This document shows positions 1-47,912 of a stretch of 47,912 nucleotides of DNA, piece after piece. The stretch is from a virus: the IMG/VR virus record IMGVR_UViG_3300050026_000188; one strand, given 5' to 3'. A program made the position numbers and the translations under genes. Position 1 is the first letter of the stretch. Each line of letters opens with the position of its first letter. The notes below the pieces were generated by a model, which saw only the letters and a program-made list of their open reading frames with translations, had not been told where the DNA came from and did no database searches.

Positions 1-77
1 GAGATCGCCCCCGCCGTGTTGAGGATGCTTGTCCCATCCGGCTTCACGCCTCCGAGCACGGTCGAAGTCGCCGTGGG
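1..77. repeat. Terminal direct repeat: bases 1..77 are identical to 47836..47912
   Basis: Exact 77-nt identity by direct comparison of the first and last lines of the window; a large minus-strand ORF reads through the junction in frame. Confidence 0.9.
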
Positions 78-907
78 TAGAACATAGGCAGATGGCGTCC
101 CACTCACCTGCGAGTAGGGCAGACTTAGGCTGGGCAGTGACGTAATCGCATTGGTGATATACCCGGAGGGATTCGCGGCGCTGTATGGGGTGAATCCCAA
201 AGCCGTCGTCACCATCGAGCCGGTGATGCCGCTGATGTACCCACTCGGGTTGGTTGCGTTGTATGGAGTGAATCCGAGTGCATTCTGCTTCCCATTGAAT
301 GCGGCCCAGTCAATGTGCGATAGGTAGCCGTCCACCGATGAAGTAGCCTGAGCCATCGCGCAATCTACGCTCGATCCGCTCGTCGTGCAATCCACCGGGG
401 CCGTGCCCGTGACCGCACTCAGCCCTCCGCCAGTTGAAGCCCCCCGCGCAACCATCGCGTTAGGGCTGGCAGTGAGCGTAAGGCTTACGCTGGTTGCCGT
501 GAACGTTCCCGAAGTCACGAATTTGATATGAGTCAGGCCGGCGAGATTGACTTGATAAAGCCCGTTCGCGGTCGCTGTCACGGTTGCGGTTGGGGTTGCG
601 CCTGGCGTTACCGCAGTGATTGGAATCGAGTAGTAAGTCGCTCCGTTGTCGCTACTCCCCAACACGGCGAAGGTTGCAGTTGTCAGGGAAGTTCCGGTTA
701 CAGCGATTGTCCCCGACGCGAAAGAGCTTCCGACGGTTGAGGGCACTACCAGGCCGTTGAGTTGAAATGGGGTACTGGTTTGCCCCGTGGCGGTAAAGAT
801 CTTCGCAGGGAAAACCGAATTGCTGTAAGGGCTCGCCAACTGAGCGCGAGCGGCGGGAGCCCCTAAACCAAAGCACAACGCGAGTGCGAGTAAAATCTTA
901 GTTCTCA
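1..907 (-). CDS. N-terminal part of a giant secreted tail-fibre-like protein (continues at 47835..44232 across the junction; about 1500 aa in total)
   Basis: ATG at 907..905 preceded by GGAGGG; N-terminus MRTKILLALALCFGLGAPAARA-QL looks like a Sec signal peptide; Gly/Thr/Ser/Ala-rich; repeated ALGFTPY..NPSGYI and ..VLGGVKPDG.. fibre-like motifs; frame continues into ORF 44232..47894. Confidence 0.6.
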
Positions 908-961
908 TTATTTGAAGCCCTCCGTTATTATTTATACGTTGCGGACTGATATTATGCATCC

Positions 962-1639
962 ATGAAGTTTTACGTTTACGCCCACAAAACGATATCCCCG
1001 CGTAAGGCGGGCGAGGTCTTTTATATCGGCAAAGGGCAGCGACGGCGCGCTTGGCTCGCAACTGGGCGCAATCCTCACTGGCAACGGGTTGCATCCAAGT
1101 ATGGATTCTCCGTCATTATTCTCGCGGACGGACTAAGCGAAAAGGCGGCTTTTGACCTAGAGAAGTCGATCATTCTCATTTGCGGCCGGGCGGCTCTCTG
1201 TAACCTTACAGACGGCGGCGAAGGCATCTCGGGTGCTTCGGAAGAGATTTGCCGGAAGATCAGCGAGCGTCACAAGGGTAAACCCAAGAGTGCTCAGCAT
1301 AAACAGAAAATAGCGGCATCGCATAAGGGGATTCGGCCATCAGAAGAAACCCGAGTCAGACTCAGAGCACGCCGACCGTCCGAAGAAACTCGCGCAAAAC
1401 TCAGTGCTTCTCAAAAGGCTCGCAATATAACCGCTCCCTCAGATTTTGCCGAGCGTAGCGCTTCCATGCGAAAGGCCGTTACTTGCTCCAACGGCATGAT
1501 CTTTGATTCGGTTAGTGCTGCTGCCACATGGGCTCGGAAGAACGGCTTCCCGAAAGCGGCTACAAGCAATATCAGCAACGTCTGTAATGGCCATCGCCCA
1601 TCAGCTTGCGGTGGCCTGACCTGGGCATTCGTCAAATGA
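962..1639 (+). CDS. GIY-YIG homing endonuclease with NUMOD3-like repeats
   Basis: N-terminal FYVYAH...GEVFYIGKG...R motif (GIY-YIG); twice-repeated SEETR..L (NUMOD3-like); free-standing immediately upstream of the large terminase. Confidence 0.8.
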   Translation: MKFYVYAHKTISPRKAGEVFYIGKGQRRRAWLATGRNPHWQRVASKYGFSVIILADGLSEKAAFDLEKSIILICGRAALCNLTDGGEGISGASEEICRKISERHKGKPKSAQHKQKIAASHKGIRPSEETRVRLRARRPSEETRAKLSASQKARNITAPSDFAERSASMRKAVTCSNGMIFDSVSAAATWARKNGFPKAATSNISNVCNGHRPSACGGLTWAFVK

Positions 1640-3099
1640 TTTCCATTACTGAGGACGAAACCGAGGAAGCCGCTGCCGAAGAGATATTCGCCCGTCGCAA
1701 CGGGCAGAAGACGATGTACGGGTATATCAAATACACGATGCTTGGTTATAAAACATCGACATTTGCCGAACGAGTATGCGCGGCGATTGACAAATTTATA
1801 ACTGATGTGCAAGCGGGCAAGCGTCCGGTTTTGATTCTTCAAGCTCCCCCGCAGAGCGGAAAATCTGAAATAGCTTCTCGCAAACTACCGGCTTATTTAC
1901 TTGGCAGGTTCCCCGATTGGCGCATTGCGGCTTGCAGTTATGGTGATGAATTGGCTGGAGCAATGGCGCAAGATGTTCGCCGAAATATCAACTCGCTTGA
2001 GCACCAAAAGCTATTTCCAGCCCCGGAAGAAAAGAAGAAATACGACGTAAACCGAATGGGAGATTTTACTGCGCCAGGTGGCACTGGCAGTTATTTGGGG
2101 GTGGGTGTCGGGGGCGGTCTTACTGGCAAGAGCGCGACCATTGGAATCATCGATGATCCAATCAAAAACGAAAAGGAAGCGCTCAGCGTTACAACTAAAG
2201 AGGGGCTATGGTCTTGGTATCAAGCTACTTTTACAACGCGGCTTTCCCAAAATTCAGGTCAAGTCATAATGGCTACATCTTGGGCGGTCGATGATCTGGT
2301 TGGGCGCATCATCGATCACTTCGCCGGCGATCCCCGTCTTACTCATTTGCGATTCCCGGCGATCAACCTGCCCGATGAAGTCGGATATAACCCCAAATTA
2401 CCAGAAGGTGCTCTCGTTCCCGAGCTTCACAGTCTCGAAAAACTATATGAGACTAAAGCTCTTTTTTCCGATTATTGGTTTTCATGCTTGTATCAGCAGA
2501 GCCCGAAGGCTCTGGGCGGCAACGTCTTCAAGGATTTTTGTATTCAGTATTACAACCCGAACGATCTGCCGAAGAAATTTGACAAGGTAATAGCGTCTTG
2601 GGATTGCACTTTCAAAGACACGGACGGGACCGATTTCGTAGTCGGGCAGGTATGGGGCAAAAAGGGAGCCAACAGTTATCTACTTGATCAGATCCGCGCT
2701 CGCATGAGTTTCAGCGTTACATGCAAAGCCATCGTTACCCAGAAACTAAAATGGCCGCAGATTCGCGAGGTGCTGATTGAGGACAAGGCTAACGGACCGG
2801 CAGTTATTGACGTGCTCAAGGCTCAGGTGCCTGGCATCATCCCGATTGAGCCCGACGGCTCGAAGCTCGCCCGCGCCCATGCGGTTACATGCTACTGGGA
2901 AGCGCTCAACGTATGGCTTCCTAATGAAGCTCTTTGCCCGTGGATAAAGGCTTACGTCTCCGAGATGACTACCTTCCCGGCGGCCGCCCATGATGATCAA
3001 GTGGATAGTACGACTCAGGCGCTCCGCCGGCTCTATCCCTTATTCGGAAGGCTCAAAATAAATCGGAATGCCATAAACAAGGCACTTGGGATAAGGTAA
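1636..3099 (+). CDS. terL: Terminase large subunit
   Basis: Walker A-like PQSGKSE, Walker B-like IGIIDDP, C-terminal nuclease motifs (ASWDCTF, AAAHDDQVDS); the ATG at 1636 overlaps the endonuclease stop (ATGA); the ORF track starts at 1606 with an alternative codon. Confidence 0.85.
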   Translation: MISITEDETEEAAAEEIFARRNGQKTMYGYIKYTMLGYKTSTFAERVCAAIDKFITDVQAGKRPVLILQAPPQSGKSEIASRKLPAYLLGRFPDWRIAACSYGDELAGAMAQDVRRNINSLEHQKLFPAPEEKKKYDVNRMGDFTAPGGTGSYLGVGVGGGLTGKSATIGIIDDPIKNEKEALSVTTKEGLWSWYQATFTTRLSQNSGQVIMATSWAVDDLVGRIIDHFAGDPRLTHLRFPAINLPDEVGYNPKLPEGALVPELHSLEKLYETKALFSDYWFSCLYQQSPKALGGNVFKDFCIQYYNPNDLPKKFDKVIASWDCTFKDTDGTDFVVGQVWGKKGANSYLLDQIRARMSFSVTCKAIVTQKLKWPQIREVLIEDKANGPAVIDVLKAQVPGIIPIEPDGSKLARAHAVTCYWEALNVWLPNEALCPWIKAYVSEMTTFPAAAHDDQVDSTTQALRRLYPLFGRLKINRNAINKALGIR

Positions 3100-35037: not shown

Positions 35038-37401
35038 GTGAATCAATTCATCGTTTACCGAAGGTCCGACAAGGCTCCCGTTGACTACCGCACGGGCAAG
35101 CCCGCGAACGCTCACGATTCCTCAAATTGGACAGACGTAGCAACAGCATCCAGTGTTGCTCAGGCATGGGGCGCTGAGTGGGGCATCGGTTTTGTTCTTA
35201 CGGAGCAATCGCAGATCGCTGTGATCGATGTGGACGGTTGCCGCAATCCGCAGACTGGGGAAATAAGCCTCATCGCTCAAACATTGATCACCATGCTTGC
35301 TGGTGCTTATGTTGAGATCAGCATCGGTGGGAAGGGCATCCACATCTGGTTTCGTTATAGCGGGGCGATGCCCCCGCACGCGAGCAGGGCGGCCGGAATT
35401 GGCGAGTTTTATCACAAGGATAGATACATCGCGATTGGCGCTCCTTATGCGGCTCCCAGCTTCACAAACGGAAGTCTGGGGACGGACCATACTGTATCTC
35501 TTCCATCTCTGATTGCTACGTTCTTTCCCCCTGACGCTTCGAGCGTCGGTGAGAGCGAATGGACTACCGAGCCCCGCGAAGATTGGAACGGGCCGCTAGA
35601 GGATAGCGAGTTGTTGCGCCGCGCCATGCAGAGCCGCTCGACGGCAAGCGCCTTCGGCGGTAAGGCGTCCTTTGCGGACTTGTGGCTCGCTAACGAGTCT
35701 GTACTCGCTGTGAGCTACCCTGACGCCAACGGGAGAGCCTACGACGCGAGCGCCGCCGATGCTGCCCTGGCTCAGCACTTGAGCTTTTGGACGGGTGGAG
35801 ATTGCGCTCGTATCGAGCGATTGATGAGGGGCTCAAAGCTAGTCAGGGAGAAGTGGGAACGTAACGCAGACGTGTACTCCGGTCCGGGTATGGGATATAT
35901 CCCCCGCACCATCCTGGGCGCTTGTGGTCGGCAGCTTGAGGTACTCTCTGATGCCGCCAGCGCCCCCGTACCGCCCCCGCCGGGCACGGTGAGCCATGCG
36001 CCCACCCCCAGGGGCGGCGATGGCTTCCTGGACTCTGAGAAGCAACAGGCTCACTTTGGGCAGTGCGTCTATGTGAGCGGCCAAAACAGAGCCTTAGTGC
36101 CTGACGGCTCGCTAATGAAGCCCGACGCCTTCCGCGTGCGATACGGCGGTTTCAATTTCAATCTCGATACTCAGAATATGAAGACAACCCGGGACGCCTG
36201 GGAAGCGTGGACGCAAAACCAGGTTTACAAATGCACTGAGGTAGACGGGATATGCTTCAAGCCCAATCTACCGGCGCGGAGCATCGTACACGCCAACGGT
36301 CAGACCTTTATCAACACCTTTATCCCCGTCGACATTCGGCGCGTTGTGGGCGACGCCAGTCCCTTCCTCAACCATCTCGCGAAGGTACTGCCCGATGAGC
36401 GCGACCGTACGATTTTGCTCTCGTATATGGCGGCGTGCGTCCAACATCAGGGAATCAAATTCCAATGGGCTCCCTTGCTGCAGGGCGTTGAGGGGAACGG
36501 CAAGACGCTCTTTGCGCGATGCGTAGAGCAGGCCGTTGGTACTCGATACACCTATTGGCCGAAGGCAGCGAAGATCTCCGCAACCTTCAATGCATGGATG
36601 GCTAACAAAGTCTTCTATGCGGTCGAAGATATTTATGTTCCCGACTCGAAGCGCGAGATCCTCGAAGACTTGAAGCCGATGATCACGGGGGACAAAATCG
36701 AGATCGAAGCGAAGGGCATCGATCAATTCATCTCGGATATTTGCGGTAACTTTATGTTCAATTCCAACCATCTTGACGCGATCCGGAAGACTGAGAATGA
36801 TCGCCGCTTTTGCGTGCTCTTTAGCGCTCAGCAACAGTCAAGCGACCTGAGACGGGACGGACTAACGGAGAGTTACTTTGTAGCCTTGTACAACTGGCTT
36901 AGAGAAGAGGGCTACGCGATAGTCAACGAGCTTCTATTTACCTACGCGATCCCCGCGGAGTTGAATCCCGCCGGCGACTGCCAGCGAGCGCCGGTCACCA
37001 CCAGCACCTCTAAGGCCATCAAAGACGGCCTGGGCAGCCTTGAGCAAGAGATCGCGGAAGCCGTCGCCCAGGGCTTGCCGGGCTTCTCTGGTGATTGGAT
37101 ATCTACAACCTGGCTTGAGCGCCTTCTAGAGCGGATGCGGCTAAACAAGATATCACACTCGAAGCGTAAACAGATCCTTGAGCAGATGGGTTATATCTAC
37201 CATCCCGCGCTCACTGACGGCCGCCCCAACAATCCCGTGCTGCCCGACAACACAAAGCCGCGGCTCTTCGTACTCGCCGGATCCCTGACTTCGCAGATCC
37301 CGACGGCCGCGGCAGCCACGAAGCATTATGAAGCCGCCAACGCAAATAAGAGCCCCGTAGGGCTCCCGTTCGCTGCTCATCAGTTTGGGCGCTCTAACTA
37401 G
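35038..37401 (+). CDS. DNA primase-helicase (PrimPol-like N-terminus + SF3 helicase)
   Basis: IAVIDVDG primase-type DxD motif; Walker A GVEGNGKTLF and Walker B FYAVEDI; GTG start with AAGGGG upstream. Confidence 0.75.
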   Translation: MNQFIVYRRSDKAPVDYRTGKPANAHDSSNWTDVATASSVAQAWGAEWGIGFVLTEQSQIAVIDVDGCRNPQTGEISLIAQTLITMLAGAYVEISIGGKGIHIWFRYSGAMPPHASRAAGIGEFYHKDRYIAIGAPYAAPSFTNGSLGTDHTVSLPSLIATFFPPDASSVGESEWTTEPREDWNGPLEDSELLRRAMQSRSTASAFGGKASFADLWLANESVLAVSYPDANGRAYDASAADAALAQHLSFWTGGDCARIERLMRGSKLVREKWERNADVYSGPGMGYIPRTILGACGRQLEVLSDAASAPVPPPPGTVSHAPTPRGGDGFLDSEKQQAHFGQCVYVSGQNRALVPDGSLMKPDAFRVRYGGFNFNLDTQNMKTTRDAWEAWTQNQVYKCTEVDGICFKPNLPARSIVHANGQTFINTFIPVDIRRVVGDASPFLNHLAKVLPDERDRTILLSYMAACVQHQGIKFQWAPLLQGVEGNGKTLFARCVEQAVGTRYTYWPKAAKISATFNAWMANKVFYAVEDIYVPDSKREILEDLKPMITGDKIEIEAKGIDQFISDICGNFMFNSNHLDAIRKTENDRRFCVLFSAQQQSSDLRRDGLTESYFVALYNWLREEGYAIVNELLFTYAIPAELNPAGDCQRAPVTTSTSKAIKDGLGSLEQEIAEAVAQGLPGFSGDWISTTWLERLLERMRLNKISHSKRKQILEQMGYIYHPALTDGRPNNPVLPDNTKPRLFVLAGSLTSQIPTAAAATKHYEAANANKSPVGLPFAAHQFGRSN

Positions 37402-37603
37402 CCGCCTTTCTCGGATGCACGTAGCCGCACTTAGAGCACGGCTTGCGGCGTTGGGTTGCTGTGAGTGGCGTCCCGCACTTAGCGCACGGCTTGAGCTTGA
37501 CGTTGGTAGCCTTCGGCGCTTTGGCGCGGTTGCGCCGCCCGTGCTCGCTGCGAAACTCAGAGTCGGGAATCGTGGTGAGATCCCAATGCGGCGTGTACTT
37601 CAA
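37394..37603 (-). CDS. Small zinc-ribbon-like protein (uncertain)
   Basis: CAKCG ... CSKCG pairs in a 69-aa ORF; overlaps the primase 3' end. Confidence 0.25.
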   Translation of the reverse strand: MKYTPHWDLTTIPDSEFRSEHGRRNRAKAPKATNVKLKPCAKCGTPLTATQRRKPCSKCGYVHPRKAAS

Positions 37604-37824
37604 TTTGAGCCCCCTTATTCAGACAGGTTACTAGTGGGATGATACTATGCGGTGAAGCGCAAGCGGGGCAGGAAATCGCAGAGTCTATAACACTCTGGCA
37701 ATTCTCGCACCAGTAAGCGCCGCTAAGGGAGATGTGAGCCATTAGGCCATCCTCTTGATGAAGAGCGAAACTGCGAGCCCTACGGCGATGCCGGCCACTA
37801 CTCCGACGGTGAAAGCGATTGAGA

Positions 37825-38457
37825 TCATTTGCTCACCCGCTTTAGAAATAATGCCTTCTGACGTTCAATAGCCGCCGAGTACGCCGCCCAGTACGCCGAG
37901 TCCGCCGCCGAGTCCGCCGCCGAGCGCGCCGCCGAGCGCGCCGCCAAGCGCGCCGAGTACGCCGCCGAGTCCACCGCCGAGTCCACCGAGTCCACCGAGT
38001 CCACCGCCGAGTTCGCCGAGTCCGCCGCCCAGTACGCCGAGTCCGCCGCCGAGTCCGCCGCCGAGTACGCCGCCGAGTACGCCGCCGAGCGCGCCGCCGA
38101 GCGCGCCGCCGACTTTTTATCTTCTAACTGAGCAAGCGTAATTTTTCCGTCCATAAAATCGCTCGCGGCTTGCAGCGCTTCGCGAGGGCGCTTGTCGTCA
38201 GGAAACGCCTTCTCAAAATTACCCAGAACTTCCATTGCAAAATCAACAGAGAGTAAAACGATGGCTCGCTTACAGGGCTCCGTAGTCGCTCGCATTGCCC
38301 AGATCGCATGATCTAAGCCGTTGGATTTGAGGATGCGTTTTAGACTGATTTCTTTATCGTCAGTCCACTTGGAGCCGAGTGAAGCTGTCAGAGTTTGTAA
38401 TCCAGCAGAGCAGGCGTTTGCCTTGTGAAGTAGAGCGAGCGTGGTTTTGAGCATCAT
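37825..38457 (-). CDS. Protein with a C-terminal SAA(R/Y/D) tetrapeptide repeat array
   Basis: ATG ATG at 38457 with AGGAGG upstream; non-repetitive N-terminal domain of about 110 aa, then SAARSAARSAAYSAAYSAADSAADSAYW... repeats. Confidence 0.45.
   Translation of the reverse strand: MMLKTTLALLHKANACSAGLQTLTASLGSKWTDDKEISLKRILKSNGLDHAIWAMRATTEPCKRAIVLLSVDFAMEVLGNFEKAFPDDKRPREALQAASDFMDGKITLAQLEDKKSAARSAARSAAYSAAYSAADSAADSAYWAADSANSAVDSVDSVDSAVDSAAYSARLAARSAARSAADSAADSAYWAAYSAAIERQKALFLKRVSK
37871..38112. repeat. GC-rich 12/9-bp tandem repeat array (GCCGCCGAG + 3 nt) inside a coding region
   Basis: About 20 consecutive units readable directly in the sequence. Confidence 0.85.
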
Positions 38458-38483
38458 TGTGAGCGCCTCCTGAGCGCTGATAC

Positions 38484-38512
38484 AGAGTATCAATTTACTA
38501 GTAAGCTGTCAA
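38484..38512 (-). promoter_or_regulatory. Promoter-operator cassette copy 1
   Basis: Minus strand: TTGACA - 17 nt containing TTACTAGTAA - TACTCT, then leader with AGGAGG. Confidence 0.4.
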
Positions 38513-39237
38513 ACATCAGGCTCTACCAGTGGAGCCAGACATTTCGCGGTAATACTGCCGATCCGTTCGGGCGTGAGCTTGGCGGCCTTCTGGCGAGCGT
38601 CTAAGAGCGCTTGCTTGGGGGTATCGCCAGCGCCGCCGCGTTGCCCGGTGTTGATCTCGGTTATGGTGAAACGGACGTTATCATCAGCGACGGTCCCGAA
38701 GCGGATGAGCGCAAAGCTCAGGAGAGGAAACTCGTGGATGCTTACGGGTACGCCCATCCGCTCCGTCTTCGGATCTGTTACCAGTTTGCCGGCAACCATT
38801 ACGGGGATCATTCCCTCTCCGTCTTCATCAAACTTCGCCCGCTTGAGCGCCTTCCTTTGATCCGTCGTCAACGCGCCGGTAAGCGATCTCTTTTGAAGCC
38901 GCTCGCTCTCTTTGTCACTCCAAGCGCTGAGAGTCTTGATCGCAGCGCCGCGGGCAATGATCAGGAAACGCGCCCGCGTCTTTACGTGGCCGGCCTGCCC
39001 CACCACTTCAAGCAGACGGGTACCAACCGGCAGCTTTACGCCGAAGGGCGGATGCCCCTCCTCTAAACCCATTCCTTCGATTTCGTGCTCACTCTCAACG
39101 ATCCTCACCGATTGGATGGTTACGCCCTTCGCCCAGGCTCGCAGGCGCTTACCGTCAATGCAGGCCGGCGCGTGCCCTTCTACGGGGATCGCTACGATGG
39201 GGGCTTTGGCTTTGAGCAGGCTCTTGATATTCATCAT
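38509..39237 (-). CDS. Hypothetical early protein
   Basis: 242-aa ORF downstream of a promoter-like cassette; no recognised motif. Confidence 0.35.
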   Translation of the reverse strand: MMNIKSLLKAKAPIVAIPVEGHAPACIDGKRLRAWAKGVTIQSVRIVESEHEIEGMGLEEGHPPFGVKLPVGTRLLEVVGQAGHVKTRARFLIIARGAAIKTLSAWSDKESERLQKRSLTGALTTDQRKALKRAKFDEDGEGMIPVMVAGKLVTDPKTERMGVPVSIHEFPLLSFALIRFGTVADDNVRFTITEINTGQRGGAGDTPKQALLDARQKAAKLTPERIGSITAKCLAPLVEPDV

Positions 39238-39243
39238 TCCTCT

Positions 39244-39272
39244 AATCTACCAGGTTACTAGTTATCTGTCAA
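39244..39272 (-). promoter_or_regulatory. Promoter-operator cassette copy 2 (variant palindrome, leaderless layout)
   Basis: TTGACA - 17 nt with TAACTAGTAA - TAGATT, then 6 nt to ATG. Confidence 0.4.
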
Positions 39273-39459
39273 TCCAATTCTTTGCCATTATCTCAGCGTC
39301 CCGGCGAAGGATCGTTAGCTCAACGTCGCCCCCGAGTGCCTGACGTTTGAAGCCCAGGGCGACGGCGTATTTATACGGGCTCTGATCTACGGGACCGGCG
39401 ATCTGGCTCACCTTCGCCCAGCGCCGGCCGCGGCGATAGTATTTGACGGGCGGGATCAC
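39262..39459 (-). CDS. Hypothetical small protein
   Basis: 65-aa ORF. Confidence 0.25.
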   Translation of the reverse strand: MIPPVKYYRRGRRWAKVSQIAGPVDQSPYKYAVALGFKRQALGGDVELTILRRDAEIMAKNWIDR

Positions 39460-39502
39460 CAGCGGTCAGCTTTCGCGAAGCAAACGATGATGACTAGCCT
39501 GA

Positions 39503-40180
39503 TCATGCGTCCAACCTCTCGGGGCGGCCGTTGTCGTCTTCGTCGAGATGCCGAGCGGTTTCGGCTTCCTCAGCGCGTATGCGAGCTTGCACCGAGAGAA
39601 AGTGTAGATCGTCGGCGTCAGTCCCCGTGGCATCGCGATCACGCCCAAGAGAGTTTTGCAGATCAAATAGTTCGGGGTGATTAGCCTTGAACGTTTTGAA
39701 GAAATAAGCATCCCGCTCAAGGCCGCGAGTCACTGGTAATTTATTGGTCAGAAGATCCGGCATTTGAATCGAAGGGTCTATTTCCATTGCTAGAGCGAGC
39801 ATCCTGGCCTTGAAATACTCACGGTCGTCCCAGTGGAGAACGATGCATATGGGGGCCAGATCTTGACGCTTAGGCTTCGGGCGGAGAGCTAGTTTACGCT
39901 CTTGCAGTTCAGCGTGAGCTTTGGCGAGTTCGATGCGCTGTCGCCGCTGATCACTCTTTTCGCGCTCGATAGCTAACCGCTCTTCCTGTAACTCAAGCCG
40001 CCGCGCTCGGTTAGCGTCACTCTCAGAAGATGAGTATGCTACGGCTGATCCCCGGATGCACATCTCACAAGTGCTGCTCTGCAAATAACGCTCAGCGATG
40101 TGTCCATTTTTACAGGGCTCACCTGTAAAATACTTTTTGAGCCCCAACGTTATTGCTTGCTGCCGCGTAATTATTTCCAT
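39503..40180 (-). CDS. Zinc-finger plus coiled-coil protein (regulator candidate)
   Basis: N-terminal KKYFTGEPCKNGHIAERY...CEMC; Arg/Glu/Gln-rich coiled segment; first gene leftward of the AT-rich control region. Confidence 0.4.
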   Translation of the reverse strand: MEIITRQQAITLGLKKYFTGEPCKNGHIAERYLQSSTCEMCIRGSAVAYSSSESDANRARRLELQEERLAIEREKSDQRRQRIELAKAHAELQERKLALRPKPKRQDLAPICIVLHWDDREYFKARMLALAMEIDPSIQMPDLLTNKLPVTRGLERDAYFFKTFKANHPELFDLQNSLGRDRDATGTDADDLHFLSVQARIRAEEAETARHLDEDDNGRPERLDA

Positions 40181-40435
40181 GAGTCAAACATTACGCTGGG
40201 AATTATTATCTGTCAAATACCGTATGTAGGATTACCCCGTCGCCCTCACCCCGAAGGCACTTCCGTAGCGCTCTAGGAACGAAGTTTGTCGAAATCAAAT
40301 GTCGTCATATCTATGTATGTAATGATTCCTACCTATTAGTATGTACTATTTCTATTTCTCCTTATTTCTCTCTATGTGTTGATTTGATATATATAAGGGT
40401 AATAGAGAAAAGAGGGTGTAACTCCAATAGAATCA
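40181..40435. promoter_or_regulatory. AT-rich divergent control region with short direct repeats
   Basis: AT-rich island in a GC-rich genome between divergent genes; repeated TATGTA and ATTTCT motifs. Confidence 0.4.
40188..40216 (-). promoter_or_regulatory. Promoter-like element without the palindrome (leaderless layout)
   Basis: TTGACA - 17 nt - TAATGT, then 7 nt to ATG of gene 39503..40180. Confidence 0.35.
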
Positions 40436-41335
40436 ATGACACCCAATAACTACCCCGTAATTACACCGCTAGCCATTCGGGGTAATTCTAAGCGCCCGTT
40501 TGCATTGTGGATGCCCGGCGCGGTAATGTGGGAAGCCAGGGATATGCTCAGTGATCGTCAAAAACGTTTCGTCTTCCATCAGGCTCGCATTACTGATGGT
40601 GCAAAGGCTTACGTATTGGCAGGTTACAGCGAGCAGGGAGCGGCTCAAGGCGCTTCGCGTCTGTTACAGAACGTTGAGATACAGGAAGCTATAGAGGTTG
40701 AGCGGGCGGACCTGGCCCGTGTCGCGAGCCTGAGCCCCGAATGGGTTTTGAATCGATGGATGTTGATCGCCAGCGCGGACCCGAGAGATCTGATCCATAC
40801 CCGCATCGGCTGCTGTCGGCATTGCTGGGGCATTGATAACAAACGGGAATGGATGGAACACGAATACGCTACCGCGCTCAACGAAGCTCTGACTTGCATG
40901 TTGCTGCCGCCGGCCTTCGAGGGTGGCCTAGGGTACTCGCCGACTCGCGAGCCTAACCCTGACTGCCCTAAGTGCAAGGGCGAAGGCTTGCCGCGGACCT
41001 GGCTCGCCGACTCCCGCAAGCTGAGCCGTTCGGCCGCGGCTCTCTTCGCTGGCGTAAAGCAGACGAAGGATGGGATTGAGATCAAGATGCACGATCAGCC
41101 CGAAGCGCTCAAGTCGCTCGCCGATTACCTGGGGATGCAGAACAAGAGCAGCGCCGATGTAAAGCTGGCTGCGGCTCTGGTGGTGGGCGGGAGCGCTAAG
41201 GATCTCTCAGACGATGAGCTTGCCGGCATCATTGAGCGGGGGCGGTTGCGGAGGGCTCGAGCTGCGACTTTGGGGGTATCTGCGGGGGTATTATCGCCGG
41301 CGGCGTTGCCAAGTAAGACAATCGAGGGCACTTAG
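40436..41335 (+). CDS. terS: Terminase small subunit-like protein (SPP1 G1P / Terminase_2-like) with Cys-rich insert
   Basis: LSDRQKRFVFHQARITDGAKAYVLAGYSEQGAAQGASRLLQNVEIQEAI...RVASLSPEWVLNRWMLIASADPRDL matches the small-terminase N-terminal pattern; CCRHC / CPKC cysteines. Confidence 0.65.
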   Translation: MTPNNYPVITPLAIRGNSKRPFALWMPGAVMWEARDMLSDRQKRFVFHQARITDGAKAYVLAGYSEQGAAQGASRLLQNVEIQEAIEVERADLARVASLSPEWVLNRWMLIASADPRDLIHTRIGCCRHCWGIDNKREWMEHEYATALNEALTCMLLPPAFEGGLGYSPTREPNPDCPKCKGEGLPRTWLADSRKLSRSAAALFAGVKQTKDGIEIKMHDQPEALKSLADYLGMQNKSSADVKLAAALVVGGSAKDLSDDELAGIIERGRLRRARAATLGVSAGVLSPAALPSKTIEGT

Positions 41336-41467
41336 TGCCGGCTTCGAGTCCCTAAGTAGGAGCGATGCACTAAAAAGCCCCCTCAGTTGAGGGGGCTGGC
41401 GGCACTCGGGGAGCCGGTTAGATGTGCATAAGAGCGCGATTGGATGCGAGCGAACGGGGGAAGCGTC

Positions 41468-41641
41468 TCAGCGTCGCATTCTTCCGGCGAAGGGATCAGG
41501 GCGGCCCAGGGCTGCTGTGACGCGCGCCAGCTCGATCTGATCAAGCATCGGCAGATCGGGTTTGGAGCCGATCTGATCTTTGATCGTCAGGGCTAAGATG
41601 GTGAGCAAGCTGAGTGCGGCAGGGATAAACAAAATGTACAT
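41468..41641 (-). CDS. Small membrane protein
   Basis: ATG with GGAGGA upstream; hydrophobic helix ILFIPAALSLLTILALTI. Confidence 0.3.
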   Translation of the reverse strand: MYILFIPAALSLLTILALTIKDQIGSKPDLPMLDQIELARVTAALGRPDPFAGRMRR

Positions 41642-41659
41642 GGAATCCTCCAAGTTGAG

Positions 41660-41688
41660 ATATTACCAAGTTACTAGTAAGCTGTCAA
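41660..41688 (-). promoter_or_regulatory. Promoter-operator cassette copy 3
   Basis: TTGACA - 17 nt with TTACTAGTAA - TAATAT, then leader with GGAGGA. Confidence 0.45.
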
Positions 41689-41858
41689 GAGTTATTTTCA
41701 TTTATTTCGAGCGTTTCCGCGTCGCATTCTTCCGGCGAAGGGATTGGGGCGGCCTTTACAACCTGGGCGCATACCAGGTGCATCGCGGCGCGGCGGGCTT
41801 TGCTACTGGGGGACGCGAGCAGGATCGCCAAGCTATCAGAGAGGATCTTCGCGGTCAT
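41685..41858 (-). CDS. Hypothetical small protein
   Basis: Short ORF; 3' end carries the same ~35-bp element as the neighbouring gene. Confidence 0.25.
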   Translation of the reverse strand: MTAKILSDSLAILLASPSSKARRAAMHLVCAQVVKAAPIPSPEECDAETLEINENNS

Positions 41859-42103
41859 GCTGCTACCTCCCACGCCCACGCGCCAGGCTTGTAAGTGCTC
41901 TGCGAGAGCTTCGAGCCGCGGAGAGTGATCACGCGAAGGCTACCGTCTGCCCGCAACACCAGAGCGCCCCCGCGCCGGCGAGCCCAGGCGTTGACGGCCG
42001 CCTTCCATGATGCCGCTTTCGTGGCGTTCGCGAGATTGCGCCATTCGGCAACGGTGAGAAGGTTGGTAGGCTGAGCGTTCGGGTTGAAGTTCGTAACTGT
42101 CAT
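41855..42103 (-). CDS. Small protein, paralogue B (MTVTNFNPNAQPT... N-terminus)
   Basis: Shares N-terminus and 5' leader with the upstream gene. Confidence 0.3.
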   Translation of the reverse strand: MTVTNFNPNAQPTNLLTVAEWRNLANATKAASWKAAVNAWARRRGGALVLRADGSLRVITLRGSKLSQSTYKPGAWAWEVAA

Positions 42104-42406
42104 TTTTGGGGTATCCTCTCGACTGCAGATACAAGAGCCTCAGCGATCCGCCGCAACGTTGCAGCATCGAAGGCGTAGTTATTCGCGGCGTTGATCCTGG
42201 CGGCCATCTCTTCGCAGGTGAGTTCCGGCGTGTTGAGGTAACGAGTGATCTCTTGAAAGAGATCCCCAGTAACTTGGTAATCTATATATGCAGTCGAGAG
42301 GATACAGCAAAATGCTTTCGTGGCGTTCGCGAGCTTGGTAGGCTGAGCGTTCGGGTTGAAGTTCGTAACTGTCATTTTTGGGGTATCTTCTCGACTGCAG
42401 ATACAG
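42015..42406. repeat. Direct repeat of about 95 bp (42015..42133 and 42314..42406) carrying leader + N-terminal coding sequence of two adjacent small genes
   Basis: Near-identical copies differing by one 28-bp indel and one substitution. Confidence 0.8.
42100..42375 (-). CDS. Small protein, paralogue A (MTVTNFNPNAQPT... N-terminus)
   Basis: ATG at 42375; the ORF track starts at 42414 with an alternative codon. Confidence 0.3.
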   Translation of the reverse strand: MTVTNFNPNAQPTKLANATKAFCCILSTAYIDYQVTGDLFQEITRYLNTPELTCEEMAARINAANNYAFDAATLRRIAEALVSAVERIPQK

Positions 42407-42433
42407 ATTAGCAAGTTACTAGTAAGCTGTCAA
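42405..42433 (-). promoter_or_regulatory. Promoter-operator cassette copy 4
   Basis: TTGACA - 17 nt with TTACTAGTAA - TAATCT. Confidence 0.4.
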
Positions 42434-42825
42434 CATAATAATGAATCTAATTTATATTCGGCCTGCAGGCGAACGCGAACGGCGTCAAGCGCCAGACATT
42501 CGGCCTTTACGAATTCGTAAGCCTTCGGGAAGCCCATCGCCGGCAGTGCGTTGCGCTGAGCAAACTTCGCTTCCTGGGCGCGGTACTCTGGGGACTGGCG
42601 AAGGATTGCTTGAGCCGCCCTGGTGCGTTCGGCGCGGTACTCATCAGCCGCCGTCTTCGGGTGAGCGATGCCAGTGTTGCGGGTAACGCATACCGAGCCG
42701 TAATGAAGGATCTCACCAGATGAGAGAAGCTCAACGGCGAAGGTTCCCTTGAGCCCAGTCTTACCGCAACAATCGCAGTTTGTAACCTCATCAGTGAAGC
42801 CGAAGATCTTGAATTTGTTTTCCAT
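42430..42825 (-). CDS. Cys-rich hypothetical protein
   Basis: NCDCCGKTG ... C motif; ATG 6 nt downstream of a -10-like hexamer. Confidence 0.35.
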   Translation of the reverse strand: MENKFKIFGFTDEVTNCDCCGKTGLKGTFAVELLSSGEILHYGSVCVTRNTGIAHPKTAADEYRAERTRAAQAILRQSPEYRAQEAKFAQRNALPAMGFPKAYEFVKAECLALDAVRVRLQAEYKLDSLLC

Positions 42826-42831
42826 AAAGAG

Positions 42832-42860
42832 ATATTACCAAGTTACTAGTAAGATGTCAA
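42832..42860 (-). promoter_or_regulatory. Promoter-operator cassette copy 5 (leaderless layout)
   Basis: TTGACA - 17 nt with TTACTAGTAA - TAATAT, then 6 nt to ATG; the 44-bp surround is nearly identical to copy 3. Confidence 0.45.
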
Positions 42861-42869
42861 GAGTTATTT

Positions 42870-43026
42870 TCAAATTCTTTTAGAAGCAATCGTTCCCTTG
42901 CTTCGCGGTATCCTGAGCTTGCGATAGAGGGTTCCCCTTCCAATCTGGATCAGCTTGGCTGCTTGGCGCTTATCGCCGTCGCATCGACGTACGGCCTCAT
43001 GGATCAGTCGCATCTCAAGCTCTGCC
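42870..43026 (-). CDS. Fis-type helix-turn-helix DNA-binding protein
   Basis: MAELEMRLIHEAVRRCDGDKRQAAKLIQIGRGTLYRKLR matches the Fis/NtrC C-terminal HTH pattern; ATG at 43026 (ORF track starts further upstream). Confidence 0.5.
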
Positions 43027-43153
43027 ATCGTTGGCAGTGTGTCGCCAAGTTCAAGGATCGGCTTCGGGAGTGGCCGCCGGCATCGTACACAGAAGGCTCG
43101 AACAAACTGATTTAGACCGCATGAGCAGCGCACTGATGGCCGCACATCGCACG

Positions 43154-43354
43154 TCACTCCGCGCCCCCGATCTCAGCGATCAGCGCCCGTATGCTCTCAA
43201 CGCTCCAAACCCGAATACGCGGGCTGAGCAGCCGGCCGGCCGGGAAGCGGCCACTTTTGACGCCCGCCCACCAGGTTGCACGGCAGACGGGGATGACGGC
43301 GAGTATTTGGGGCAATCTCACAAAACCAACTTCAGGAAGGTTCATACACTCCAT
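43154..43354 (-). CDS. AlpA-family regulator / excisionase-like HTH protein
   Basis: FVRLPQILAVIPVCRATWWAGVKSGRFPAGRLLSPRIRVWSVESIRALI matches the AlpA pattern. Confidence 0.6.
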   Translation of the reverse strand: MECMNLPEVGFVRLPQILAVIPVCRATWWAGVKSGRFPAGRLLSPRIRVWSVESIRALIAEIGGAE

Positions 43355-43442
43355 TGTAGTCCATTACCCTCTATCGTTGGGCATAACACGCAAGCGCCAG
43401 TTACCTTGACGTGACTTTGGTTACCGGGGTACTGTTGGCGAT

Positions 43443-43703
43443 ATGGCAACCCCCAACCCGCTAGACGAGATGAATTGGGAAGATCGCTTTATGTATGCGT
43501 TCCGCAGCGTGCTAGTGCTTGAGAACAGGCTCGAAGATGCGCTCGCACTACTCAAAGAGCAACGCCCTGAGATTGTGATTTTGCACAACGGCGATCAGGT
43601 TCAAAAGCTACGCGAGCGCCATCAGATCAGACAGCTACGCAAAGAAGGTGTGAGTTATCGGAACATCGCGAAGCGCATTCAACAGTTGCGGAAAGTAATT
43701 TGA
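43443..43703 (+). CDS. Hypothetical small protein with basic C-terminus
   Basis: 86-aa ORF; C-terminal RQLRKEGVSYRNIAKRIQQLRK could be a DNA-binding helix. Confidence 0.3.
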   Translation: MATPNPLDEMNWEDRFMYAFRSVLVLENRLEDALALLKEQRPEIVILHNGDQVQKLRERHQIRQLRKEGVSYRNIAKRIQQLRKVI

Positions 43704-44231: not shown

Positions 44232-47200
44232 CTAGTTACCAATGCAAATATAGCGAATTGCGTCACTACCTAAACCGCCATCATCTGAAAATGTCACCGA
44301 CGATCCACTTGTGTAAGTAACTCCCAGTGCGTTAAGATTGATGGTGCTGACTGTTGCGCTCGTCATACAGGCATAAGAGGATGAACTGGTAAATATGGCT
44401 GACCCGCTAAATGTCACCGTTGCAGCACCACCAGAAAGCGTCGTCAAGCCCATCACTGTGTGCGCAGATGTCAGTTGCGTCCCGGCGGCGTTGTAGAGCG
44501 TTCCACCAGGGCACCCCGTCCCATCCGCAAGGCAGTGGGCTTCTGGTACTCCGCTACCATTCAAGTCTGTGCTGCCCGCTCCTGCTGAAGATACACCTGT
44601 GCTACTTACTTGAAACTGGCTACTTGAACCAACGGATAGCAACGCCGCTGGCGAAGTCGTCCCGATGCCGACGTTGCCTTGGAAAATACCTCCACCTGTT
44701 CCAACCCACAGACTCTTCCAACGTTGGCCCGTAACCCCAAGGTTAATCGTATTATCGAAGGCGGGGGCCGGATTAAGACCAGTTGCGGTTAATTGCATTA
44801 CATCCTCATAAGCTGGGGAACCCGGCAGCTCAAAAGCGAGCGTGGTATACGTGCTCTGCGCACCAATCCTTAAAACATTATAGGTGCTGTCCAAATATAT
44901 AAAGGCTGGCGGCGTCTGCCCATTTATTACGATTGGGTTGGCAAAGACTGTAGGATTTCCGGCGATAGTCAGGCCGCCCGTGCGCAATGCGCCAGTGCCA
45001 AGATCAAGAGCCTGTACAGGGCTCGTCGTCCCGATACCGACGTTGCCGTTATTATCTATCCTGACCTTTTCCGTTGGTCCACTAAGACCATCATTTTGCG
45101 TGAGAAAACGAATCTGCGATAGTGTATTTTGCGAACCAGATACGATGTCAAGTATTCGTGCATAGATGCCTGCCGTTGGGAAATTTTGAGCTTGGTAAAA
45201 ATTGAAAACACCTTGGTCACTAATACCATATGTTCTTAAATTAGTATCAGTAGACGGATTTCCCAAAGACAACTGCCCACTCGGCCCCGTCGTCCCGATG
45301 CCGAGTCTATGATTCGTCGCATCCCAGAAGAAATTGGAATTGTCTTGTGCGATGGTTGAGCCATTTGAGAACAACACGGAGCCAGAGGTTAGCGAAGGCA
45401 AAGTGAATGTCCCGTAAGTATTTGTGTCCAGCGCAAACGTCCCTGCTGCCGTCATCTTTACGAATGGTGTGCCCGTAGTCCATGTCGGATAATTCAACGC
45501 GCCCCATGTGCCTACGGAAGGCAGAGCCGTGCATCCCCCGCTGGACATCAATGCGCCAGAGCAAGAGCCGGAACCAAACAGCGCCGTTATATCGCTGTAT
45601 AGCGGAGTGCGCCACGCCGTGTTCCCACTATTCGCCACGCCAATCGTGTTTGCTCCGGGGTAGGTCATGGTACTGCCCGGAGTCTGCCATCCCTGAGCTG
45701 TTGCCCCAGAGTTCATCCCCCAGACTTGGTTTGCCGTGCCGTTGGTGCTGAGGTTTGTGGCTGTGGATGAGTTGCCAGTAAAAGCGGCTCCATGAAGTGT
45801 CGCTAATCCGGCTGCACTACCGAAGTATTCATCAGTTACCGCAGCATTGCCAATTACTGCTGTGTTGGAACCTGCTCCAACTGCCGTCGATCCTACTACA
45901 ATTTCGTTTGTGTTACCATTCGCACTTGCCTGTGTGTTCTGCCCCAGGAAAGTCCCGTAGCTACCCGTTATATTATGATACCCAGTAGGAAGTAAAGTTC
46001 CTGCTAAATAGCCCGCTGCTGTATTACCATTGCCCGTAGTAGTGAACTGAAGCGCCCCACTTCCAATTCCGGTACTGTAACTCCCAGAAGAGTTTGTAGC
46101 TAGGGTATTATTTCCGATTCCTATGTTATTGCCCCCACTTGTAAGATTGTAGAGGGCAGAGTCCCCTAAGCCTATATTGTTACTACCTGTCTCTATGCCA
46201 CCGTAACCTATTGCCTCAGCACCTATCGCGATATTGAATGATCCAGAGGCACCAAGTAGGTTTGATGTACCTATGGCAATGTTCACTGTGCCGGTAGAAC
46301 TTGCTAAAGTGCTACTATTACCGATGGCAATCGAACTAGCTCCTCCATACGTCAAGGGCAAACCGCCCCCTAAATTCAGATTAGAAGATGGGATGGTATA
46401 AATTGCGACCCCACTATCCTGAACCTGGTCCCCTGTTCCGGTAAAGGTTACGGCATCATTGGCGGTTGCGCTGCCGGGTCCGGTGACTGGGTTGGTAAGC
46501 GCGAGTTGGAAGTCCGTAGCCGCATGAGTCGCCGCCGTCCCTACCGTTGTAGAACAGCCGCTCGCTCCGTTGCTCAGATCGCCACATGCTGCTTGACTGA
46601 ATGTTGCGCTGCCGTTCGACTTGACCGCGCCTGTCACGGCCCCCGCGTTGTCCGCCTTCGTGCCTTGTGCCGCCGTGGCATAAGCCGTGGACGCGGTGTA
46701 AGCCGCCGACCCAACCGCACCGCTGCCAAGCAGCACCGAGCCACTTCCATAGGTACTTAGCTCGCCCAGCACGCCGCTGTTGTTGTACTCGATGTGGCCA
46801 GTCGTGCCACCCGCAATCGTCGTGGTGCCTACGGTGATCGTTCCAGCAGATGCGGATATGGTACAGGTTCCACCCAGGGCGCAGTTCTGGCCGTTGACCG
46901 TAGTCACCGAGTTTGCTAAGGCTGCGTTCGGTACCGCCTCATACGTCACCGTGTTCGTACCGGTCACTACCGGTACGGTGTTGGTTGAAGGGCTGGAACC
47001 GTAGCTAACTCCATTCACCACTGCAACCGTGGGAGTTGCGGTCGTCACTGCTGTCAACTGCCCCGCTGCGTTGTAGGTGATAACTGGTATCGCTGTCGCG
47101 CTTCCCGTCGGCCCTGCCGCCGTAATGACCCCACCCGAGGGGACGTGGCTTGCCGATGTGCCGATAGGGAGGTAGGAATAGCCCACAGTCCCAGACGAGA

Positions 47201-47912
47201 TGTTGCTGGCGTTGGAGGCGTAAGTTTCAGCATTCGATTGAGCCGTGGAAGCTGCGCCAGAAGCATCATAGGCCGTTGATGCGGTAAACGCCGCAGTACC
47301 AAATACGCCCCCAGCCGCAGTCGTCAGATAGGAAAGCGTCGTTACGGTTGGCGCAACCGGAGTGTAGGTCAACGCGGTAGTCACCTGGCCAGAGGTCATG
47401 CCGGTTAGGTTCGCCATACTGAAGGTCGGTGCCGCCGTGAAAGTCGGAGCCGCGCTGCTGCCGGTGAAGTTGCCAAAAACGGTGTTCGCCGCCTGATTCT
47501 TGAGTGTTGCCGTGACCGTTCCGCTGGTTGTTACCGCTGTACTCGGAGTCGAACTGTCCACCGTGCCATCGCCCGTGAAGGTCACGCTGCTTACGCTTCC
47601 CGTAGATGTTCCGCACGTTGGGCAAGAGATCGCTCCCGTTGCCGCGACTACAATTGGGAGTGTTCCGCTCAGTCCAGCCGAACCAACCGAGCCGATGGGA
47701 ATGCCAGTCGGCAGATAACTCACTCCAATGGTTCCAGTGTTGATGTGGCTGGCATTCTGCGCGTAAGTCTCGGCATTGCTCTGAGCCGTTGCCGCCGCAC
47801 CGGAAGCATCCGCTCCCACACTTGCCGCTGTTGCCGAGATCGCCCCCGCCGTGTTGAGGATGCTTGTCCCATCCGGCTTCACGCCTCCGAGCACGGTCGA
47901 AGTCGCCGTGGG
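44232..47912 (-). CDS. C-terminal part of the giant secreted tail-fibre-like protein (N-terminal part at 907..1)
   Basis: ORF is open to the window edge and matches 1..77; A..S..A..S fibre-type repeats (TAQSNAETYA.NAS twice); several N.GIGTTSP motifs. Confidence 0.6.
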   Translation of the reverse strand, partial: PTATSTVLGGVKPDGTSILNTAGAISATAASVGADASGAAATAQSNAETYAQNASHINTGTIGVSYLPTGIPIGSVGSAGLSGTLPIVVAATGAISCPTCGTSTGSVSSVTFTGDGTVDSSTPSTAVTTSGTVTATLKNQAANTVFGNFTGSSAAPTFTAAPTFSMANLTGMTSGQVTTALTYTPVAPTVTTLSYLTTAAGGVFGTAAFTASTAYDASGAASTAQSNAETYASNASNISSGTVGYSYLPIGTSASHVPSGGVITAAGPTGSATAIPVITYNAAGQLTAVTTATPTVAVVNGVSYGSSPSTNTVPVVTGTNTVTYEAVPNAALANSVTTVNGQNCALGGTCTISASAGTITVGTTTIAGGTTGHIEYNNSGVLGELSTYGSGSVLLGSGAVGSAAYTASTAYATAAQGTKADNAGAVTGAVKSNGSATFSQAACGDLSNGASGCSTTVGTAATHAATDFQLALTNPVTGPGSATANDAVTFTGTGDQVQDSGVAIYTIPSSNLNLGGGLPLTYGGASSIAIGNSSTLASSTGTVNIAIGTSNLLGASGSFNIAIGAEAIGYGGIETGSNNIGLGDSALYNLTSGGNNIGIGNNTLATNSSGSYSTGIGSGALQFTTTGNGNTAAGYLAGTLLPTGYHNITGSYGTFLGQNTQASANGNTNEIVVGSTAVGAGSNTAVIGNAAVTDEYFGSAAGLATLHGAAFTGNSSTATNLSTNGTANQVWGMNSGATAQGWQTPGSTMTYPGANTIGVANSGNTAWRTPLYSDITALFGSGSCSGALMSSGGCTALPSVGTWGALNYPTWTTGTPFVKMTAAGTFALDTNTYGTFTLPSLTSGSVLFSNGSTIAQDNSNFFWDATNHRLGIGTTGPSGQLSLGNPSTDTNLRTYGISDQGVFNFYQAQNFPTAGIYARILDIVSGSQNTLSQIRFLTQNDGLSGPTEKVRIDNNGNVGIGTTSPVQALDLGTGALRTGGLTIAGNPTVFANPIVINGQTPPAFIYLDSTYNVLRIGAQSTYTTLAFELPGSPAYEDVMQLTATGLNPAPAFDNTINLGVTGQRWKSLWVGTGGGIFQGNVGIGTTSPAALLSVGSSSQFQVSSTGVSSAGAGSTDLNGSGVPEAHCLADGTGCPGGTLYNAAGTQLTSAHTVMGLTTLSGGAATVTFSGSAIFTSSSSYACMTSATVSTINLNALGVTYTSGSSVTFSDDGGLGSDAIRYICIGN

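Follow-up and report, generated by a model that had tools for sequence, protein, structure and literature searches.

The AT-rich non-coding region in front of the small terminase gene (terS) of this phage is probably an iteron-type replication origin, of the kind known from the SaPI Pri-Rep proteins and from P4 alpha, which would also carry divergent promoters. The region covers 363 nt of the window, by which we mean the whole analysed stretch of 47,912 nucleotides, and elements which combine an origin with start signals in this way are already known. The original prediction had named a regulatory switch, a replication origin and a packaging site as options. The comparative evidence favours the origin, within an overall reading of the region which was partly supported, while nothing in the analysis supports a switch of the lysis/lysogeny type.

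The window is a circular assembly, bases 1-77 recurring at 47836-47912; the genome is thus 47,835 bp long and encodes a complete tailed phage. No relative at the DNA level was found among isolated phages, and Rfam and tRNA scans of the whole window returned zero matches. The gene blocks and the neighbours of the region are as follows.

1.6-25 kb, plus strand: TerL, portal, head and contractile-tail genes
25-37 kb: replication block with DNA polymerase, ParB-like protein, ssDNA-binding protein, exonuclease, helicase, methylase and primase
35038-37401, plus strand: primase-polymerase/SF3 helicase (phrog_1829, NrS1-1_pol-like_HBD and DUF5906), the proposed origin-binding initiator
37.4-40.2 kb (37394-40180), minus strand: small leftward genes
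39503-40180, minus strand: leftward gene of 225 aa with a zinc-finger-like N-terminus (phrog_1081, profile match)
40181-40543: the whole non-coding control region, 363 nt, from the leftward zinc-finger gene to the true TerS start
40544-41335, plus strand: TerS, Terminase_2 with a Zn-ribbon insert, monocistronic (homologue N-termini, profile match)

To the right of the control region comes the lone rightward TerS gene, after which reading of the sequence shows a hairpin at about 41364-41397 and then further leftward genes. The neighbours had been predicted correctly as a divergent zinc-finger gene and a small terminase, and the N-terminus of the former (MEIIT..) is kept in L009, L011, L014, L019, and L079. 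The region itself had been placed at 40181-40435, with the right-hand gene starting at 40436; the low GC of this span stood, whereas the gene start did not. Six homologues of TerS (P0002, P0003, P0005, P0006, P0016, and P0021) begin at the residue matching the ATG at 40544 (MLSDRQKRF; MLxxRQ). The upstream "extension" of TerS (VDAxRGNV), added by the gene caller in three other homologues, differs in frame between the window and P0001, and the reading frame from 40436 is closed by a stop codon in L015. These homologue starts, together with the differences in frame and stop, rule out a start at 40436 and place it at 40544, so that the non-coding region is 40181-40543.

The GC content of 40181-40435 is 38%, against 56% for the genome, and this is the genome minimum at all sliding-window sizes from 80 to 255 nt and the joint minimum at 60 nt. 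The claim that it is the largest AT-rich island of a GC-rich genome therefore holds. Cumulative GC skew had a local minimum at 40.25-40.5 kb, but it was uninformative and not used, since the curve tracks gene orientation throughout the genome. Computation showed the following repeats and their layout; the iteron PWM was built from the sequences of relatives.

40222-40345, plus strand: second repeat family, GTATGTA at 40222, 40315, and 40339, with TATGTA at 40312
40232-40254, plus strand: left iteron pair, TTACCCCGT (40232) and TCACCCCGA (40246), PWM scores 14.4 and 8.2
40297-40396: AT-rich core, 26% GC, proposed DNA-unwinding region
40396-40421, minus strand: degenerate inverted iteron pair, AGGGTAA (40396-40402) and GAGGGTGTAA (40412-40421), by-eye comparison, weak in the window
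40450-40485: right iteron cluster, CTACCCCGT (40450, plus strand), TACACCG (40462, plus strand, 11 nt on) and TTACCCCGA (40477-40485, minus strand), PWM scores 12.7 and 11.3
40490-40543, plus strand: conserved block before TerS, AGCGCCCGTTTGCATTGTGGATGCCnnGCGCGGTAATGTGG.., including TTGTGGATGCC (40505-40515)

Four copies or near-copies of TACCCCG within 300 nt make up the densest cluster of the genome (P ~0.01 under uniform placement). The good copies are at 40232, 40246, 40450, and 40477, with the variant TACACCG and the degenerate central pair in addition. This most informative repeat was absent from the original prediction, which had listed TATGTA and ATTTCT. Both of these are present, TATGTA four times (40223, 40312, 40316, and 40340) and ATTTCT three times (40348, 40354, and 40364), and they are partly conserved in relatives; the argument for an origin is carried by TACCCCG and not by them. 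All three copies of GTATGTA in the whole genome lie inside 124 nt here, and it is the clustering that exceeds chance, not the count (1.9 expected). GTATGT[AC] or CATACAT repeats occur at the matching place in L009, L014, and L077. The AT-rich core holds the three ATTTCT copies (40348-40369), the CTCTCTAT box (40368-40375) and TATATATA (40388-40395), the last two being each single-copy in the genome. The degenerate inverted pair is the counterpart of ACGGGGTAnnGGGGTA, seen by eye in the cores of L010, L011, L012, L014, L019, L077, and L079. The block at 40490-40543 is near-identical in seven relatives (L009, L011, L014, L015, L017, L018, and L078), and TTGTGGryGCC within it is retained in L010, L012, L077, and L079; the block may serve TerS as promoter or leader, bind a host factor or be a priming site. 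The TTGTGGATG block resembles a minus-strand DnaA box at 7 of 9 positions.

Relatives were reached via TerS homologues with 50-86% identity, and consisted of short metagenomic contigs and several longer ones. The order common to them was primase, leftward genes, an AT-rich gap of 330-610 nt, a lone TerS gene and leftward genes; the longer contigs (L010, L011, L077, and L078) continue with an integrase, a large leftward gene and TerL. The general layout recurs in about 40 more distant relatives, and twelve close ones keep the order of the elements and their distances from the TerS ATG, as given here.

-300 to -360, minus strand: TTGACA (in the longer gaps of L010 and L012 at about -490 to -500)
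-290 to -340: direct TACCCCG cluster adjoining TTGACA
between the left TACCCCG cluster and CTCTCTAT: GTATGT[AC]-type repeats
-175 to -197: CTCTCTAT
-150 to -178: TATATA abutting the inverted pair ACGGGGTAnnGGGGTA
-71 to -119: two to three direct TACCCCG copies, 11-13 nt apart
-59 to -73: one inverted TACCCCG copy
-30 to -66: TTGTGGryGCC in a block of about 55 nt, almost invariant among the closer relatives

In seven of nine loci ACCCC[GA] motifs were over-represented in the gap (P 1e-4 to 1e-13); the enrichment was weaker in L015 (P 0.008) and there was none in L018, while L010 has up to 13 copies of TACCCCG across 550 nt. A scan of viral contigs for the pattern TTGCATTGTGGATGCC returned 20 chance matches and one true match, on the same contig as L001. 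Two metagenome scans found no relative, and a scan of a genome collection gave only distant TerS relatives (at most 43% identity), none with the window-type primase. No comparable repeat region was present upstream of terS in F116 and Itty13, two isolated phages with a related TerS. The repeat counts in the window alone are low, GTATGTA being found three times against 1.9 expected genome-wide, as they would be in a functionless AT-rich island, that is, a horizontally acquired or decaying spacer with chance repeats. Such an origin of the region is scarcely credible, as the positions are conserved block by block although TerS is only 40-86% identical, and one block is nearly invariant.

The TACCCCG clusters go with the module of NrS-1-type primase and SF3 helicase, and not with the TerS family, as was shown by computation on a wider set of loci. 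Eighty further relatives of the primase (42-71% identity) were examined, and in about 40 of them the primase is followed after 1.6-7.2 kb by a window-type TerS gene. About 28 of these 40 have their densest TACCCC[GA] cluster, within a locus of about 20 kb, 235-460 nt upstream of TerS. The low-GC cluster persists before a ParB-like gene (L197), before phrog_1924/4688 (L210, L217, and L229) and before another TerS/TerL family (L236). Thirty-one TerS relatives without this primase, from viral contigs and bacterial genomes, had no cluster (0-2 motifs in 29 of them, three and five in the other two). The primase C-terminal helix KISHSKRKQILEQMGYIYHPAL is well conserved across the clade, as is the repeat. 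Two divergent cases belong to the same evidence on a possible repeat specificity in the window clade: in L223 ATCATAA, present 11 times, replaces TACCCCG in the same layout and the primase helix is different, and L196 has AATTTAC-type repeats with yet another primase helix. Several contigs of about 43 kb end 250-900 nt past the primase; these ends were considered as genome termini and rejected, being assembly breaks inside a pentapeptide-repeat gene.

The same loci bear on the possibility of a pac site, at which a ring of TerS would bind phased repeats upstream of its own gene in the manner of SPP1, set the first cut by TerL and autoregulate terS. The TerL of the window is a T4-like Terminase_6, a type which we take to be associated with headful packaging. 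Its TerS belongs to Terminase_2, the family of SPP1 G1P, and the right cluster is phased at 11-13 nt directly upstream of TerS. The pac sites of SPP1 and SF6 have direct-repeat sets and promoters immediately upstream of a Terminase_2-family terS as well, with three such sets in SPP1 lying over the promoters and the terS start (PMC4737164). However, the repeats of the window stop short of the terS coding sequence and none is found inside it. TACCCCG is constant although the DNA-binding helix-turn-helix of TerS (aa 1-55) is only 26-69% identical across the clade in reliable pairs; pairs with L010, with TerS identity down to 15%, were excluded, as its TerS translation is possibly out of frame. 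Moreover, the repeats are absent upstream of the TerS relatives which lack the primase, they persist before unrelated downstream genes and other terminase families, and in the sister clade described below they follow a patch of the primase and not the helix-turn-helix, the TerS module occurring also without the element. The packaging site of the original prediction was thus not supported, as the repeats do not follow TerS, and we regard it as quite improbable. An association of the variable repeat sets (GTATGTA, ATTACTGAG, and TTACCTCA) with the type of TerS helix-turn-helix was also considered and failed, the window and L014 sharing GTATGTA with different helix-turn-helix sequences.

The sister clade, made up of Acinetobacter phage 4316-like loci, has a TerS about 40% identical to that of the window and a compact element about 75 nt after the primase stop codon. 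This element consists of three direct repeats, TTTTT, a (T/C)CTATTTATATATATAGG core, which holds TATATATA, AAAAA, and two inverted repeats. Among 79 sister loci it was found in all 23 with the primase immediately upstream and was absent from the 56 which have the same TerS module on other backbones; the match in L129 is a chance occurrence of TATATATA, and L096 has a variant core. Computed co-variation showed that five iteron types pair one-to-one with five variants of a patch of 5-15 residues in the C-terminal domain of the primase.

Repeat GGCGTTAA: primase patch SKF[KR]TAKGANGARKMLG
Repeat GTGACGTTA: primase patch SRFQLIRSTGGKRLFAG (SRFQLIRSTGG)
Repeat GTGGCGTTA: primase patch SRFTSAKGTGGKRLFAG (SRFTSAKGTGG)
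Repeat GTGACTTAA: primase patch GKFKTHKSNGVFSYIG
Repeat GTGCGTTAA: primase patch S[KR]FKVQRSNGKGFYLG

The GTGACGTTA and GTGGCGTTA types are one base apart in the repeat and five residues apart in the patch; elsewhere in the aligned C-terminal ~130 residues the two primase groups are near-identical. In L153 the primase is divergent (80% identity), yet the first patch and the first repeat are both present. The TerS helix-turn-helix types do not respect these pairings, SAKTAYSIGEQNL being found with three of the repeat types and KVKNEDVAAVMASRLL with two of them. These pairings are strong indirect evidence that the C-terminal domain of the sister-clade primase reads the repeats. The sister primase belongs to a different subfamily (Prim-Pol, PriCT_2, D5_N, and DUF5906), and the co-variation would apply to the window by analogy, via the shared layout and SF3-helicase ancestry and not via identity.

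The primase of the window matches the N- and C-terminal regions of the NrS-1 primase in PDB, and weakly SaPI5 PriRep5 (7ola). Its residues 621-787 were modelled with AlphaFold from an alignment of 19 sequences.

aa 666-770 (about 37033-37347): C-terminal winged-helix core of the primase, with a predicted recognition helix at aa 707-716

The core had pLDDT values of 87-95 and the order helix, strand, helix, helix, strand, long wing, strand, and the domain models as a winged helix. For an origin at this site we infer the following course of binding, melting and initiation. The primase-helicase (35038-37401) would bind the 7-bp TACCCCG iterons through its C-terminal winged helix, with opposed iteron clusters flanking the AT-rich core (40297-40396). 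Helicase rings would load at the iterons, the core would melt and the prim-pol domain would prime synthesis. The same 363 nt would also hold a leftward sigma-70 promoter and the promoter and leader of the monocistronic TerS gene.

The promoter with TTGACA which the original prediction had put in the region is indeed present, but it is on the minus strand and faces the zinc-finger gene, not TerS.

40188-40216, minus strand: leftward sigma-70-type promoter, -35 TTGACA (40216-40211), 17-nt spacer, -10 TAATGT (40193-40188)

Seven nt separate its -10 from the ATG of the leftward gene at 40180. The geometry TTGAC[AT]-16/17-TAxxxT-6/7-ATG was found in 9 of 12 relatives, and L009 has a version with an 18-nt spacer, read by eye. 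As the -10 ends 6-7 nt before the start codon, this implies a leaderless mRNA for the zinc-finger gene, as predicted from the sequence. Promoter prediction on both strands gave no support: a generic consensus sigma-70 scan called a promoter on neither, and it missed the leftward one because the -10 fits at only three of six positions. The same scan gave a single terminator-like hairpin, within the left gene. The reading as a divergent control region held for the conserved leftward promoter; a recognisable sigma-70 promoter for TerS was not found. A candidate, TTGCAT-18-TAATGT, lies directly before the ribosome-binding site of TerS, but its predicted start would delete the GGAGG site.

These promoters could also be the whole content of the region. 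It would then consist of divergent promoters with TACCCCG and GTATGTA as operator or activator sites for a conserved phage regulator, which times TerS and the leftward genes, and it would have no role in replication. The leftward promoter is conserved, and the TerS promoter must lie in the region too, since the transcription of both neighbours runs either away from it or towards it. Counted from the predicted leftward start, the two left TACCCCG copies fall near -56 and -70, where activators typically bind, the inverted pair adjoins the TATATATA box, and the lack of a sigma-70 consensus for TerS suggests dependence on an activator. On the other hand, no candidate regulator was identified, the leftward neighbour gene differs among relatives which keep the repeats (L010 and L012 against the window), and there is no TACCCCG cluster before the TerL/structural operon. 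The copies in L010, up to 13 in 550 nt and arranged in opposed arrays round an AT-rich core, exceed the usual needs of an operator, and the co-variation in the sister clade points to the primase. A purely transcriptional region is accordingly a possible, though rather unlikely, explanation.

As an origin, the region may be set beside several known systems. The ori and crr of P4 are two separated elements, and the alpha primase-helicase uses its C-terminal domain to recognise their short, octamer-type repeats, which occur in both orientations. The window shares with P4 the short repeats in both orientations and a multifunctional primase-helicase, whereas the fold family of the alpha primase differs from the NrS-1-type prim-pol of the window. 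The origin of lambda is inside the initiator gene and depends on an O/P-type initiator and host DnaB. Iterons next to an easily melted AT-rich region are common to lambda and the window, but the initiator proposed for the window is a self-loading SF3 primase-helicase.

The closest description is that of SaPI origins, in which rep is directly followed by 6-12 iterons of 5-6 bp with an AT-rich centre, at least two iterons lying on each side in opposite directions; the C-terminal winged helix of Rep recognises them and Rep self-loads (PMC9371898). The region of the window would fit this description except in its location. Likenesses to SaPIs and PICIs are the short iterons, 7 bp here, in at least two opposed sets round an AT-rich centre, an initiator with primase, SF3 helicase and a C-terminal winged helix (here as modelled), and a repeat specificity varying with the C-terminal domain (here in the sister clade). 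In the window clade, however, 1.6-5 kb lie between the primase and the site, which comes downstream behind the leftward cassette, as opposed to about 75 nt after the primase in the sister clade, and in the window it lies within the upstream region of TerS with a divergent leaderless promoter. The window also has the extra repeat families (GTATGTA and CTCTCTAT) and the conserved TTGTGGryGCC block, and it is a complete tailed phage, not a satellite.

The NrS-1 polymerase, of the same protein family (NrS-1 HBD and SF3 helicase), depends on the recognition of a short sequence, TTTGGTTA or GTG(A/G); an origin for it has only been suggested, from two copies of an 8-nt recognition sequence in the genome centre, and no origin with iterons and an AT-rich region is described for NrS-1 in these papers, which is a difference from the window (PMC7102993, PMC8718748). 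The conserved block of the window contains TTGTGG. Among the recognition sequences reported for this polymerase GTGG is the best, and for this reason the GTGG at 40507-40510 may, as a speculation, be taken as a priming site. It is unlikely, but conceivable, that the region is a physically coupled hub for the origin and the packaging gene, with initiation at the TACCCCG iterons and the TTGTGGryGCC block as the de novo priming site of the primase.

Several observations count against an origin. The window has only four good iterons (P ~0.01) and a degenerate central inverted pair, and 2.8 kb, taken up by the leftward genes at 37394-40180, separate the region from the primase gene upstream of it. 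At least two iterons per side, opposed and round an AT-rich centre, are clear in L010, L012, L019, L077, and L079, while the window has two direct iterons on the left, the degenerate inverted pair in the centre, and two direct and one inverted on the right. The TACCCCG clusters are always at the boundary between replication or early genes and packaging genes; with this position they may have a role in late transcription or packaging which is independent of the TerS type.

For this window the practical gain is modest: the element is of an ordinary kind, its coordinates have been corrected and an erroneous gene start has been dropped. Were the hub reading true, origin firing and TerS expression would be mechanistically linked, and the widespread family of phages with NrS-1-like replicases would have a first defined origin and priming site. 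In the sister clade, a patch of five residues seems to determine which repeat the primase recognises. Phages with an NrS-1-type primase-polymerase/helicase are common in metagenomes, and the conserved repeat and AT-rich site offer a concrete target for binding and replication assays and aid the annotation of origin, promoters and TerS start.

The first and last 77 nt of the window (1-77 and 47836-47912) are identical, so the contig is an assembly with a length of 47,835 bp that is either circular or terminally redundant. Where it is broken is arbitrary, and the break lies inside a gene. The small terminase gene (40544-41335) is monocistronic. It and the large terminase gene (1606-3099) are about 8.1 kb apart, separated by leftward genes and a large ORF. 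This separation is kept in relatives (L078), whilst in Stenotrophomonas phage B2, the nearest isolated phage by large terminase, the two genes are adjacent. The features found in this part of the genome were as follows.

44232-47835 joined to 1-908, minus strand: open reading frame of about 1503 aa, running leftward across the assembly junction
962-1639, plus strand: homing-endonuclease-like gene (phrog_314; weak NUMOD3 match)
41657-41700, 42402-42445 and 42829-42872: 44-nt repeat, three copies
42060-42133 and 42332-42405: 74-nt repeat, 97% identical
41462-41506 and 41710-41754: 45-nt repeat, 91% identical
within 42870-43703: Fis-type HTH protein
within 42870-43703: 66-aa protein, putatively AlpA/excisionase-like as judged by eye, with no family match
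within 42870-43703: weak similarity to HTH_38, scoring under the Pfam threshold

The homing-endonuclease-like gene is placed directly 5' of the large terminase gene and overlaps its start. The ORF of about 1503 aa gave no Pfam or PHROG matches, and its hydrophobic N-terminus, MRTKILLALALCFGLGAPAARA, looks by eye like a signal peptide. Relatives carry a large leftward gene at the equivalent place, with a Laminin_G_3 match in the copy from L011. In the relatives L010, L011, L077 and L078, a gene for a tyrosine integrase separates the leftward genes from the large ORF. The scan of window proteins, which covered a part of the total, showed no integrase; the matching position is occupied by the Fis-type protein, the putatively AlpA/excisionase-like protein and the weak HTH_38 match.

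Each copy of the 44-nt repeat precedes a small leftward gene, and its minus strand has the near-consensus promoter sequence TTGACAGCTTACTAGTAACTTGGTAATAT. Within the promoter spacer there is a 10-bp palindrome, TTACTAGTAA, a possible operator. The 74-nt and 45-nt repeats are duplications that take in the upstream sequence and the 5' end of small leftward genes, whose products have the N-terminus MTVTNFNPNAQPT.

A further leftward gene of the window lies near the primase gene.

37825-38493, minus strand: gene for an Imm5-like protein that contains a repeat tract of low complexity (AARSAAYSAADSA..)

A different gene, coding for pentapeptide repeats (ADLRGANLYGA..), is found just 3' of the primase gene in relatives L160, L162, L163 and L170. 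Contigs of several relatives break within this gene, and these breaks only mimic a common genome end near the primase.

Among the short blocks of the non-coding control region, TTGTGGATGCC (40505-40515) is the one best conserved in relatives. Its minus strand, GGCATCCACAA, fits the DnaA-box consensus TTATCCACA at seven of nine positions. GTGG, which also lies in the block, is the best of the recognition sequences reported for the NrS-1 primase. In the related locus L018 the region is without most of the TACCCCG copies, and its AT-rich core is bracketed by a 36-nt inverted repeat, GTTTGTTTTCAATGGTTTAGGTCTATTTATCTATAT, at 1093-1128 and about 1283-1318, perfect as judged by eye.

In the sister clade of Acinetobacter phage 4316 (OM334891.1, L022 3130-3250; loci L080-L096, L102, L119, L121, L141 and L153), five iteron variants correspond one-to-one to five variants of a patch of 5-15 residues in the C-terminal domain of the primase. 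For instance, replacement of QLIRS by TSAKG in the patch accompanies a one-base change of the iteron from GTGACGTTA to GTGGCGTTA. The patch is a candidate specificity determinant of the primase in this clade.
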